Shown here piece after piece: positions 2,422-19,945 of a stretch of 19,945 bases of DNA. Below the pieces are notes generated by a model. It was given only the letters and a program-made list of their open reading frames with translations. It did not search any database and was not told the DNA's origin. Within the stretch, counting starts at the first letter, position 1. Every line of letters starts with the position of its first letter. The position numbers were made by a program, and so were the translations under genes. The DNA is taken from IMG/VR virus record IMGVR_UViG_2671180417_000021; one strand, given 5' to 3'. The stretch is from a virus. Its lineage: Duplodnaviria > Heunggongvirae > Uroviricota > Caudoviricetes.

Positions 2422-2434
2422 AGGGTACAGATAA

Positions 2435-2511
2435 TGGACCGCCATCGAGGACTCGAACCCCGCGCAACCAGCTTCGAAGGCTGGCGCTCTATCCCGATGA
2501 GCTAATGGCGG
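2435..2511 (-). tRNA. argN: tRNA-Arg (UCG), second copy
   Basis: Identical to 1306-1382 shifted by 1129 bp. Confidence 0.8.
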
Positions 2512-2520
2512 TATGTGATA

Positions 2521-2596
2521 TGGTGGCCCTTGCTGGATTTGAACCAGCGACCTGGCGATTATGAGTCGCTCGCTCTCACCACTGAGCTAAAGGGCC
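2521..2596 (-). tRNA. ileZ: tRNA-Ile2-like (CAU), second copy
   Basis: Identical to 1392-1467 shifted by 1129 bp. Confidence 0.8.
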
Positions 2597-2645
2597 GCGC
2601 GCAGAATAATAACGTTACGGAATTAATACTGCAATCTCATCCGTT

Positions 2646-3695
2646 TCAAACGATTAAATCCTGAACTTCCCTGACTGTCTGCTCAAAACGTCCGGTCTCC
2701 AGCTCAACACCAATCGCACGACGCCCCAGTGCCATCGCCGCTTTTACCGTTGAACCCGACCCCATGAAAAAATCCGCAACCAGATCACTAGGACGACTAC
2801 TTGCGCTGATTATCTGCTGCAGCATTTCTGCCGGTTTTTCGCACGGATGTTTCCCTGGATAGTACTGCACCGGTTTATACGTCCACACATCGGTGTACGG
2901 CACCTGCACCGTCACACCGAAATACCGCCGCAAATTTTTATATTCACTCAGCAGTTCCGTATACTGCCGGTTCAGCTCACTGTATGTGCTGACCAGCTGG
3001 TGGTGTGGCTTTTCCAGTTCACCCCGCTGATGTTTCTCTTCTGCCACCCGGGCAAACAGCGACTGTAATTTCAGATAATCGCTTTCGTTCGGTAGCTGCC
3101 ACTGACTGGCACTGAACCAGTGCGACACCATGTTTTTCTTTCCTGTGGCATCTGCAATCTGTTTTGCCGTTATCCCCAGAGCAGCACGCGCATCACGAAA
3201 GTAAGAAATCAGCGGGGCCATCACATGCTGTTTCAGTGCACTGCCCTTCGCCTCATCGCCATCATCTTTCGGACGATACGGCCCCTGATAATGTTCCGCG
3301 AACAGAATGCGCTCTGTGGCGGGGAAATACGCCCGCAGGCTTTCCTTGTTGCATCCGTTCCAGCGTCCGGACGGCTTCGCCCAGATAATATGGTTCAGCA
3401 CACTGAAGCGTTCACGCATCATGATTTCGATATCAGATGCCAGGCGATGACCACAGAACAGGTAAAGACTTCCGGCAGGTTTCAGCACCCGCCAGAACTG
3501 CGCCAGACACTGGTCCAGCCACTTCAGGTAATCATCGTCGCCCTTCCACTGGTTATCCCAGCCCTCAGGCTTCACTTTAAAGTACGGCGGGTCCGTGACT
3601 ATCAGGTCAACAGAATTTTCGGGTAACGACCGGATAAATTCCAGGCAGTCGGCGTTGATTAACTCACAACTGGATATTTTTACAGTATTAAGCAT
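2646..3695 (-). CDS. DNA methyltransferase, beta-class N6-adenine/N4-cytosine type (DPPY motif near the N-terminus, FxGxG motif near the C-terminus)
   Basis: 349-aa ORF. LIVTDPPYF (motif IV) precedes ADFFMGSGST (motif I). ATG at 3695-3693. Confidence 0.85.
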   Translation of the reverse strand: MLNTVKISSCELINADCLEFIRSLPENSVDLIVTDPPYFKVKPEGWDNQWKGDDDYLKWLDQCLAQFWRVLKPAGSLYLFCGHRLASDIEIMMRERFSVLNHIIWAKPSGRWNGCNKESLRAYFPATERILFAEHYQGPYRPKDDGDEAKGSALKQHVMAPLISYFRDARAALGITAKQIADATGKKNMVSHWFSASQWQLPNESDYLKLQSLFARVAEEKHQRGELEKPHHQLVSTYSELNRQYTELLSEYKNLRRYFGVTVQVPYTDVWTYKPVQYYPGKHPCEKPAEMLQQIISASSRPSDLVADFFMGSGSTVKAAMALGRRAIGVELETGRFEQTVREVQDLIV

Positions 3696-3787
3696 GGATC
3701 ATTAAGCCTGTCTCTGATAGGCTCATTCTGCTTTTGCGCAAAGCAGTGGGCCTGAGGTTTGCTTGTGAACCCAACGCATGAGCAGAT

Positions 3788-16727: not shown

Positions 16728-17243
16728 ATGGCGTTAACACACCACGAACTCTGTCAGATTGCGTACAAGTTCCTTAAGCGCAACGGGTTCAAGGTTTGCT
16801 TTCATGACCGCTTTGTTGCTGTAACCAGTACCGGAGAACAGCCAGATGCTATGGGATTCAGAAATTCAGCATCATGCCTGATAGAGGCGAAGTGTTCTCG
16901 TGCTGACTTGTTGGCAGATAGAAAAAAGCGTTTCCGTAAAAATCCCTCACTTGGCATGGGCGACTGGCGATTCTTTATTAGTGAGCCGGAAATTATTTCA
17001 GTTGAGGATTTACCTCCCGGCTGGGGATTACTTCACGTTGTTAACGGAAGAGTACGGAAAGTACATGGATGGCCCAGGGGTAATTGCTGTTGGGGTAATC
17101 CTGACGATAAGCCATTTACTGGGAATAAGCAGGTTGAATGCGATTACATGTTATCTGCATTAAGGCGCATGGAGTTGAGAGGGCACCTTAATGAAATATA
17201 TGACGGTGTGATTGTTAATAAGAAAGAAGGAAACGCGGCATGA
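16728..17243 (+). CDS. Hypothetical protein with a possible PD-(D/E)xK nuclease-like motif
   Basis: ORF 16695..17243 trimmed to ATG at 16728 (AAGGAG upstream). Motif ...QPDAMGF...CLIEAK... Inference only. Confidence 0.4.
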   Translation: MALTHHELCQIAYKFLKRNGFKVCFHDRFVAVTSTGEQPDAMGFRNSASCLIEAKCSRADLLADRKKRFRKNPSLGMGDWRFFISEPEIISVEDLPPGWGLLHVVNGRVRKVHGWPRGNCCWGNPDDKPFTGNKQVECDYMLSALRRMELRGHLNEIYDGVIVNKKEGNAA

Positions 17244-17806
17244 TCACTATTACCAAAGGGCGACTGCTGACAATCCAGCAGTGGCGCGAAACATACGGAC
17301 CTGGCAGCAACGTTGTACTGCCAGCAGAAGAAGCGGAAGAACTGGCACGAATTGCACTGGTATCGCTGGAAGCAGAGCCTGTAAGCCAAACTTACAACTT
17401 GCCAGAATTAATCGAAGGCATGGAAGTTTCCATTGATGTAAGCACTTGTGATGTTGATTTAGGTAATCGCTATTTCGGTACCGTCACCGAGGCGTTAGAA
17501 CTTGATACAGCCAAAAATGGTTACATCCTCCTAGTTCAGGACGCAGAGCCAAACTTCGATGTAAATGGCAACTCTCCGGGAACTCCGGATAGTTGGATAA
17601 GCTGTAGTGATCGAATGCCTGAAAAGGGCCAGAACGTGCTTATTTCGGTGAATTTCGATAGCTCTCAGGTTGAACCGCTAATATGCTCCGCACGCTATAC
17701 CGGAAGCACCTTTCGGCGCGGAGATGCAACGATTAAGCCGGGTAATGGTATTGAGCAAGCAACTCACTGGATGCCGCTACCGGAACCGCCGCTGGAGGTG
17801 AAGTGA
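17240..17806 (+). CDS. DUF551 domain protein
   Basis: C-terminal WISCSDRMPEKGQNVLI...ATHWMPLPEPP fits the DUF551 pattern. ATG overlaps the upstream stop. Confidence 0.6.
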   Translation: MITITKGRLLTIQQWRETYGPGSNVVLPAEEAEELARIALVSLEAEPVSQTYNLPELIEGMEVSIDVSTCDVDLGNRYFGTVTEALELDTAKNGYILLVQDAEPNFDVNGNSPGTPDSWISCSDRMPEKGQNVLISVNFDSSQVEPLICSARYTGSTFRRGDATIKPGNGIEQATHWMPLPEPPLEVK

Positions 17807-18414: not shown

Positions 18415-18696
18415 ATGAACACCTTGTTTTTACTGATGGCTGAATTCAATACCCCAAACATTGAACTCTCAGCAGTTAGCCAAAAGTACTTTGGTATGAG
18501 TCCAGCCACGGCAGAAGCAAAAGCAAACGCTTGTAAGTTGCCCGTTCCAACATATCGCATCGGCACATCACAAAAAGCAAAACGTTGCATCAATATTCAG
18601 GATCTTGCGGAATACATAGACAAAAGGCGAGAAGAAGGACGTATCGAGTGGGAACAGGTCAGAACAGTCAAACAGAAGGGCAAAGAAAATCACTAA
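18415..18696 (+). CDS. PrtN-family / excisionase-like small DNA-binding protein
   Basis: ORF 18388..18696 trimmed to ATG at 18415 (GGAG 6 nt upstream). N-terminus MNTLFLLMAEF and ...QKYFGMSP... resemble PrtN-family proteins. Last gene of the plus-strand operon. Confidence 0.6.
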   Translation: MNTLFLLMAEFNTPNIELSAVSQKYFGMSPATAEAKANACKLPVPTYRIGTSQKAKRCINIQDLAEYIDKRREEGRIEWEQVRTVKQKGKENH

Positions 18697-18727
18697 AGAA
18701 AAAACCCGCCTGAAGGCGGGTTTTCAA
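18697..18727. terminator. Bidirectional rho-independent terminator
   Basis: AAAAAA-ACCCGCC-TGAA-GGCGGGT-TTTT. Separates the plus-strand operon from the convergent minus-strand cassette. Confidence 0.75.
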
Positions 18728-18743
18728 AAAGCACCAGCTATGA

Positions 18744-18917
18744 TCATGCTGCTTTGAGACGACGAAGCTTACCCTGCTGCTCTTTACCAGAGACAGTAGC
18801 GTGAGTGAACGCATTAGGAGCAGCCTTCATCAGAACTTCAACAGCAGCACCCATACCTACGAATGCTTTCATTGTGTCGAACTTAACCTGTGGCTTGGTT
18901 GCTTTTTGATCTTCCAT
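18744..18917 (-). CDS. Small hypothetical protein (57 aa); below the ORF-track size cutoff
   Basis: Hand-translated: MEDQKATKPQVKFDTMKAFVGMGAAVEVLMKAAPNAFTHATVSGKEQQGKLRRLKAA. ATG at 18917 with GGAG 8 nt upstream; stop TGA at 18746-18744; followed by the bidirectional terminator. Confidence 0.45.
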   Translation of the reverse strand: MEDQKATKPQVKFDTMKAFVGMGAAVEVLMKAAPNAFTHATVSGKEQQGKLRRLKAA

Positions 18918-18956
18918 AGAAAACTCCAGAAGTTATACCGAAACAATTCCTGTTGT

Positions 18957-19376
18957 TTACTCATCATCAATAGATGATACGCAATATTTATTTTTAAATT
19001 TAAGGTTCTTTGGCGTAACTTCATCAGAGATATCAAAACCGTCCAGAATTCTATTGAATGTAGCTTCTGGCATATCATCATGAACAGAAATCTCACCCGA
19101 TCGCTGCTTTCTAACCATGTTATCCACTCGCCAAATTATAGCTTCAGCGTAAACAACATAACTTGGATGCTTGATAAAGCGATGATCACCAGAATTCAAG
19201 ACGCAAGACGGATCGTGGGGGACACCATCCTTGATACTAGAAATATTAACAACTAAAACACAATAACAATCGTTAACGGGGTAATAAACAGGATCATTAC
19301 AAATCACATGAAGATGATTGCATGGTCCAGTTGGGGCAAGCACAGTTCCTTTCCTGTATGGCTGATAATCCGTCAT
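18957..19376 (-). CDS. Unrecognised 139-aa Cys/His-rich protein, translationally coupled downstream of the Panacea-domain gene; candidate toxin/effector
   Basis: ATG at 19376 overlaps the upstream stop (ATGA) and has no SD of its own. 7 Cys and several His (CNHLHVICNDP, DCYC, HDPSC). AT-rich. No family recognised. Confidence 0.55.
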   Translation of the reverse strand: MTDYQPYRKGTVLAPTGPCNHLHVICNDPVYYPVNDCYCVLVVNISSIKDGVPHDPSCVLNSGDHRFIKHPSYVVYAEAIIWRVDNMVRKQRSGEISVHDDMPEATFNRILDGFDISDEVTPKNLKFKNKYCVSSIDDE

Positions 19377-19945
19377 GATAATTGCAAAGAAAATTCCTTA
19401 AGTTTCTGAGATTCTTCCATTTTGCCAATTATGCGATTAGCCTCATCCTCGCTTTTACCCTCACTGATCAGCATTTCTTTCAGGTCTATAGGCTTACGAG
19501 AATTGCCAGGATCGTGCCACTCTGGACAAACGCTTTCTAAATGCGTCATATTTGCGAGATCAAATCGGTTCATATGCCCATACCGAGAATAGATTTCATC
19601 TAAAATCCGGATATCTGCACGACTCAATTCATCAAAGACCTCGTCTGCATCCATTTCCCTCGGATCTGAACGCAACGATACATTATGCCCGTTCGTCTCT
19701 ATCAAGTTGTACCAGTAGTCACCAATGCCTTCAGCCTTACCGCGAATCAAGTTCAGCGTATTCGACATGACTGGTCCAAATTTCATAGAGTAAAGGCTAT
19801 CTTCGCCGATCATCCTGCCATGCTTCAAAATCGACTGGCGGTTAGACAGATAGAGCAGCTTCATCAATTTCAGATATGCCATGCGCCCACCTCTCTTAAG
19901 AAGTAGGTATGCAGCCATTTGAGCTACTTTTTCTTCGCAAAACAT
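19373..19945 (-). CDS. Panacea (DUF4065, SocA/GepA-like) domain protein; putative antitoxin; start codon is the last 3 nt of the window, so the N-terminus may be incomplete
   Basis: ...VAQMAAYLLLKRGGRMAYLKLMKLLYLSNRQSILKHGRMIGEDSLYSMKFGPVMSNTLNLI... matches the DUF4065 N-terminal signature (K-L-x-K-LLY ... GPV) as I recall it. 190 aa. Confidence 0.6.
   Translation of the reverse strand: MFCEEKVAQMAAYLLLKRGGRMAYLKLMKLLYLSNRQSILKHGRMIGEDSLYSMKFGPVMSNTLNLIRGKAEGIGDYWYNLIETNGHNVSLRSDPREMDADEVFDELSRADIRILDEIYSRYGHMNRFDLANMTHLESVCPEWHDPGNSRKPIDLKEMLISEGKSEDEANRIIGKMEESQKLKEFSLQLS

Follow-up and report, generated by a model that had tools for sequence, protein, structure and literature searches.

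We describe here a two-gene cassette at the end of a stretch of viral DNA of 19,945 nucleotides (nt), called the window throughout (Caudoviricetes; IMG/VR record IMGVR_UViG_2671180417_000021). Its genes, panA and panT, most probably form a toxin-antitoxin module: the first encodes an antitoxin built on the Panacea (DUF4065) domain, the second a predicted toxin which by its sequence falls within cluster T6 of the PanT proteins published by Kurata et al. 2022 (PNAS, PMC8832971). Over positions 18600-19945 the window shows 100% identity to Escherichia phage Lys8385Vzw (MT225100), which resides as a prophage in Escherichia coli O103:H11 strain RM8385, and 99.1% identity to phage SKA5. The features of the locus are listed in Table 1.

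Table 1. Features of the panA-panT locus in window coordinates (aa, amino acids; ORF, open reading frame; SD, Shine-Dalgarno sequence)
Feature	Position	Strand	Description
panA	19373..19945	-	190-aa predicted antitoxin; stand-alone Panacea (DUF4065) domain, long C-terminal helix; complete ORF
panT	18957..19376	-	139-aa predicted toxin of PanT cluster T6; predicted MazF/Kid-like fold with extra C-terminal helices
ATGA stop/start overlap	19373..19376	-	panA-panT translational coupling; read directly from the sequence, no SD before panT
57-aa ORF	18744..18917	-	phrog_2741; own SD; phage-backbone gene between panT and the terminator
Terminator-like hairpin	18700..18725	-	intrinsic type, 11-bp stem with 6 G-C pairs, followed by a T-run; from terminator scan and direct reading

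The two genes are arranged as a translationally coupled operon in which the antitoxin comes first. They overlap by 4 nt, and overlaps of -4 or -1 are also found in homologous loci. No SD is present within approximately 12 nt of the panT ATG; the closest AAGGA is located some 19 nt upstream. On both points, the shared ATGA and the lack of an SD for the second gene, direct reading agrees with the original prediction that was made from the letters of the sequence. We then compared 32 genome loci carrying PanAT, of which 30 are informative in the sense that the contig permits the check. In all 30 of these PanA is found immediately upstream of PanT and on the same strand. Taken together, the overlap, the missing SD and the constant pairing bear out the proposed antitoxin-first, coupled Panacea bicistron. 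Conservation as a pair had been set beforehand as a test of this proposal, and it is seen throughout the informative loci. The loci span Gamma-, Beta- and Alphaproteobacteria and many genera, and the similarities of PanA and PanT fall together.

The Panacea signature suspected in the first gene is confirmed by a Pfam search. PanA matches PF13274 (SocA_Panacea) with E = 2.2e-19 and 70.9 bits (cut-off 25.7), the match covering residues 27-137 of the protein and positions 1-109 of the 113 in the profile. The KFGPV motif is located at residues 55-59; among 47 homologues G57 and P58 never vary, and V59 is kept in at least 90%. In the same homologues the N-terminal residues M1, F2, E4, K6, A8, Q9 and M10 are nearly invariant. 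The start at 19945 is also the annotated start in MT225100, with GAGG 9 nt upstream of it in the phage record. The ORF is complete in the window, and the suggestion that its true N-terminus would lie beyond position 19945 does not hold. Some database records lengthen PanA to 232 aa by means of an upstream start (for example P0068), which is doubtful given the conserved N-terminus. The AlphaFold2 model of PanA has a predicted local distance difference test (pLDDT) score of 93, is fully ordered and ends in a long helix (residues 166-189); an extra N-terminal domain is not present. According to Ernits et al. 2023, PanA proteins neutralise their toxins either via the globular domain or via appended elements.

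PanT is the more difficult of the two proteins. Searches of the window protein yield no credible match in Pfam, NCBIfam, PADLOC or PDB sequences (both single-sequence and profile searches of the PDB gave noise), and weak matches to ICMT, DapC and zf-DNL were dismissed as chance. The protein does match phrog_19071, annotated as 'unknown function'. The initial homology search yielded 62 clusters, most of them from Enterobacterales, Vibrio and Shewanella and all annotated as 'hypothetical'; an exhaustive profile search raised the number to 2,703 representatives (clustered at 50% identity; E <= 1e-3), of which 929 reach E <= 1e-10. Structure prediction allows a placement. The AlphaFold2 model based on a 54-sequence alignment reaches a pLDDT of 90.1 and a predicted template modelling score of 0.84, and when this model is compared to the PDB with Foldseek the best 50 matches are all MazF-family chains (best E = 3.7e-3). 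Against a library of viral structures the top matches are named 'PemK-like protein' and 'Endoribonuclease'. Judging from the model, PanT thus belongs to the MazF/Kid/CcdB fold superfamily as one of its divergent members, with two additional C-terminal helices. The original prediction could not assign the partner to a toxin family; structure search and the T6 membership discussed below both give it a place.

To describe the conserved positions we used 127 representatives sharing at most 50% identity. Near-invariant are H21, L22, V43, D55, C58, G63, H65, F67, S72, Y76, G113 and S117, while S or T is found at position 46 in 86% and at position 47 in 98% of the members. PanT holds six cysteines (not seven, as counted earlier) and six histidines. 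Conservation is restricted to H21, C58 and H65; H23, C26 and the others vary, which leaves five of the six Cys and four of the six His unconserved and speaks against a classical four-ligand Cys/His zinc site. The earlier suggestion of metal binding consequently keeps only part of its basis: three Cys/His residues are conserved, together with D55, but the remaining ones are not. We also aligned the family with hhalign to a small MazF/Kid/EndoA profile, built from sequences that were verified against the PDB. Although not significant (E = 0.11), the alignment is collinear and places S46/S47 opposite MazF T52/T53 and H21/L22 opposite H28/R29. This suggests that the active site of PanT is probably in the MazF location, with a different chemistry.

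The family itself has been described before. Kurata et al. defined 88 clusters among the proteins that are paired with Panacea antitoxins (PMC8832971). For cluster T6 they give no match in CDD and an HHpred call of EndoA/PemK/MazF-like. One of its members is the PanT of Pseudomonas moraviensis (WP_083201923.1), which is toxic in E. coli and neutralised by its PanA; the complex of both proteins was recovered by pull-down, and the toxin selectively inhibits 35S-Met incorporation, that is, translation (PMC8832971). Among the T6 entries of Dataset S1, as far as available, two strains appear once each: Pantoea septica LMG 5345, where the gene distance is -4, and Yersiniaceae bacterium 2016Iso4, where it is -1 (PMC8832971). 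By scanning species-representative genomes with the PanT alignment we found the corresponding loci. In Pantoea septica LMG 5345 (locus L014) PanA at 2429..3004 and PanT at 3001..3405 overlap by 4 nt, the latter being 56% identical to the PanT of the window; in Chimaeribacter coloradensis 2016-Iso4 (L013) position 3004 is shared by the end of PanA and the beginning of PanT (overlap of 1 nt), and the identity of PanT is 55%. For these two strains, then, the overlaps are exactly those given in the available Dataset S1 entries.

A third connection leads towards the validated member. Kurata et al. restored the decapeptide MIFSEQKVAQ on the P. moraviensis PanA (PMC8832971). In our PanA search the PanA of Pseudomonas sp. 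TNT2022 (P0441, locus L043; 42% identical to the PanA of the window) begins with the same ten residues from a GTG start, and it overlaps by 1 nt with a PanT of 132 aa which shares 43% identity with the PanT of the window (E = 1e-32). On these sequence grounds the window PanT is a member of the published T6 family and not a new toxin. An assignment to cluster T1, which holds the 'not toxic' pairs of E. coli MOD1 and Salmonella phage Emek, was rejected: the overlaps in T1 are -20 and -62 instead of -4, and a tblastn search of the window PanT against the phage collection gave no match to phage Emek. In Pseudomonas sp. TNT2022 PanAT belongs to a small toxin-antitoxin islet, its neighbours being a Phd/YefM-ParE pair and an integrase of the phage type (L043 1244-1772 and 3950-5098).

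The genomic setting is that of a Shiga toxin (Stx) prophage. Following the annotation of MT225100, the window also encodes stxA, stxB, Q, a repressor region and early-left genes; stxA and stxB are found at approximately 2476-3702 on the minus strand (41969-43195 in MT225100), which identifies the element as a Shiga-toxin-converting prophage. The panAT cassette is placed between an excisionase-like (xis-like) gene and the integrase gene (int), the latter just past the end of the window. It is convergent with the xis-like gene (18388/18415..18696, plus strand) and, as proposed, lies beyond it, in the slot where accessory cargo of a lambdoid prophage was expected. Phage mEp460 has a different gene in this slot, the 177-aa hypothetical gp23 (locus L041, 4015-4548), upstream of the same 57-aa ORF as in the window, which marks the xis-int slot as an exchangeable cargo site. 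The spacer between panA and the divergently oriented integrase gene measures 455 bp and lies past the window end (locus L001, 7347-7800); in a promoter scan of this spacer the sites were no more numerous than in shuffled sequence. The cassette had also been called AT-rich. Its GC content is indeed lower (41.8%, the remainder of the window having 48.9%), but equally low values occur in other stretches of the window.

At its other end the unit is closed by the terminator-like hairpin; the convergent xis-like gene ends right next to it. The scan position (L001 6126..6101) corresponds to window 18725..18700 and is identical in sequence. The hairpin was called on the minus strand only, and CAAAAAG comes after the stem on the plus strand. 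The description as a bidirectional terminator is thus only partly supported: the G+C-rich hairpin and its T-run are present, but a plus-strand call is not. Elsewhere in the window, the 188-aa product of 17240-17806 (plus strand; Lys8385Vzw_33 in MT225100) bears the label 'valyl-tRNA synthetase', almost certainly in error, the protein being a small early-left phage product.

Among 5,426 complete E. coli genomes, 208 contain the pair; its location is chromosomal in every case, and it is annotated as 'Panacea domain-containing protein | hypothetical protein'. Other temperate phages carry it at other sites. In Enterobacter and Klebsiella prophages PanAT is inserted between tail genes, a moron site other than that of the window; the copies there are 73% identical and follow tail gene K (JAB/NlpC-P60; loci L003-L008, 3432-4453). 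Yersinia phage YeP1 has the pair beside int/dinI and the P2-like Pseudomonas phage Sirocco near the portal end. A PanT of 53% identity is also present in Vibrio phage 10N.239.311.H11_PE001 (H30), a 14.5-kb element of V. cyclitrophicus that was deposited as a phage; it is found at 566-949, near the end of the element, which could be a satellite or serve in defence.

Summarizing, we consider it likely (a probability of roughly 0.8) that panA and panT make up a type II toxin-antitoxin module which falls into the published T6 class, and that an Stx-converting lambdoid prophage of E. coli O103:H11 harbours it as an exchangeable 'moron' in its xis-int interval. By analogy with the P. moraviensis member, free PanT would arrest growth through a selective block of protein synthesis, and PanA would neutralise it in a stable protein-protein complex, using its globular Panacea surface and/or the C-terminal helix 166-189. 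PanT would act as an endoribonuclease on mRNA, tRNA or rRNA, with an active site at the MazF position made of other residues: H21 and S46/S47 would take the places of R29 and T52; D55, C58, H65, S72 and Y76 are likewise near-invariant. Loss or inactivation of PanA would set PanT free, and the pay-off would be retention of the prophage and/or abortive infection against superinfecting phages.

Several observations weigh against this reading. PF02452 (PemK_toxin) gives no match at E <= 1 for the window PanT or for any of the 54 family members; the hhalign comparison is not significant, so that homology to MazF is not demonstrable at the sequence level; and the catalytic Arg of MazF is not conserved in the family. 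The link to the validated WP_083201923.1 runs via a close Pseudomonas proxy and via cluster membership, and toxicity and neutralisation would be carried over to the window pair from the P. moraviensis member. Moreover, 8 of the 25 PanTs tested by Kurata et al. were non-toxic in E. coli, and for the P. moraviensis PanT the effect shown is translation arrest (PMC8832971).

A first alternative concerns the biological role and is compatible with the toxin-antitoxin mechanism: the module might serve mainly in abortive infection, PanA sensing a phage cue and releasing PanT. PanAT is recurrent cargo of temperate phages in differing moron slots, a location that fits superinfection defence as well as prophage stabilisation; in Pseudomonas it adjoins another toxin-antitoxin pair and an integrase; and a sensory role for Panacea has been hypothesised by Ernits et al. 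2023. On the other hand, none of the three proteins of the cassette matches a model of PADLOC-DB v2 at E <= 0.1, and our literature search returned no report of defence by a PanAT and no phage data on T6. A mainly anti-phage function is a possibility that we hold only tentatively.

Somewhat less probable still is a PanT which has the MazF fold without being a MazF-type mRNA interferase. H21, D55, C58 and H65 (with S72 and Y76) would then form another catalytic or metal centre, for example a Zn or Cys/His centre, and the substrate would be tRNA, rRNA or a translation factor. These six residues are 97-99% conserved among the 127 representatives whereas the MazF Arg is absent, PanT family members do not match the PemK profile, MazF has a single C-terminal helix where PanT has three, and translation inhibition is all that is known of the tested T6 member. 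Yet S46/S47 and H21 fall at the T52 and R29 positions of MazF in the collinear alignment, and the catalysis of Kid also employs a His. The variability of H23, C26 and the other Cys/His residues moreover speaks against a classical four-ligand Cys/His site.

There is also a more speculative proposal, to which we attach a low probability. The T6 PanTs may be a large branch of the MazF/CcdB superfamily in which the Arg/Thr chemistry was replaced by a His21-Asp55-Cys58-His65 centre, possibly metal-dependent or thiol-based, and which may strike translation elsewhere than at ACA-type sites of mRNA. PanA-PanT in Stx prophages might be a phage-triggered abortive-infection switch that also affects maintenance of the prophage or of Stx.

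The 57-aa ORF was considered as a functional third component of the system, for instance a regulator or chaperone. It is encoded on the same strand 39 nt past panT, has its own SD (GGAG, 8 nt upstream of the start) and precedes the terminator; given this position it is probably co-transcribed with panAT. Nevertheless none of the 32 PanAT genome loci surveyed contains it, nor do the PanAT copies examined in Enterobacter, Yersinia, Klebsiella and Pseudomonas phages. It matches phrog_2741 (E = 1e-34), and phage mEp460, which has no PanAT there, carries it as gp24 in the corresponding xis-int slot, downstream of the other cargo, gp23. We therefore rejected a three-gene system as very improbable. 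As far as sequence comparison can tell, the ORF is an independent phage-backbone gene beside the exchangeable cargo site; the earlier description of a gene with its own SD following panT is correct, but it does not belong to the module. That PanT would be a CcdB-like gyrase poison instead of a translation inhibitor is just as hard to maintain, because the tested T6 member specifically blocks incorporation of 35S-Met and not of thymidine, CcdB being part of the same fold superfamily notwithstanding.

Since the partner belongs to a published and partly validated PanT family, the cassette can be annotated as PanA/PanT (T6, MazF-like) and need not be pursued as a new toxin fold, which removes a false lead. 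The T6 family is large (approximately 2,700 representatives at 50% identity), and neither Pfam nor NCBIfam offers a model for it. PanT is listed as 'hypothetical' in the E. coli genomes mentioned above, Stx-converting prophages included. Interest now attaches to the biochemistry of this large, unannotated group of MazF-like proteins and to the part that it may play in Stx prophages.

Among known systems, the P. moraviensis PanA-PanT is closest. Like the window pair it consists of two genes with the antitoxin first and with overlapping stop and start codons; its PanA also lacks an extra N-terminal domain and has the same conserved N-terminus, and its PanT is placed in the same T6 cluster, for which our MazF-like prediction agrees with the HHpred call of the authors. 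Differences are found in context and sequence. The window pair resides in an E. coli Stx prophage and is followed by the 57-aa backbone ORF, unlike the P. moraviensis locus, which the dataset flags as 'NotPhage'; approximately 57% of the residues differ between the window PanT and a P. moraviensis-type PanT, a figure obtained via the Pseudomonas proxy.

Similarities to MazEF and Kis-Kid (PemIK) are seen in the antitoxin-first operon, in translation inhibition (shown for the tested T6 member) and in the S/T pair after strand 3 of PanT, which corresponds to 'TT' in MazF and 'TS' in Kid. PanT differs in having neither a PF02452 match nor the conserved Arg, with His, Asp, Cys and His conserved instead, and it is some 30 residues longer with two more helices. 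The antitoxins are different as well: MazE and Kis are of the AbrB or ribbon-helix-helix type with a disordered tail, whereas PanA is a globular Panacea protein.

SocAB of Caulobacter (type VI) shares PF13274 through its antitoxin. SocA is the founding Panacea-domain protein, and some records name the window PanA a 'SocA family protein', which raises the option of a PanA that acts as a ClpXP adaptor and promotes degradation of the toxin. We regard this as highly unlikely: the NCBIfam SocA_antitoxin equivalog (NF047745) scores 14.4 bits, far below its 190-bit cut-off, PanT is unrelated to SocB, and the stable complex of the P. moraviensis proteins is type II behaviour, so that sequestration is to be expected. 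Returning to the T6 assignment, the module finally resembles the other MazF-like PanTs (for example cluster T5, and the PanT of B. ruminantium; Kurata et al. 2022), which likewise combine a Panacea antitoxin with a MazF-fold toxin and inhibit translation. T5 members reach HHpred probabilities above 99% to EndoA/MazF, whereas T6 is far more divergent and has conserved residues of its own.
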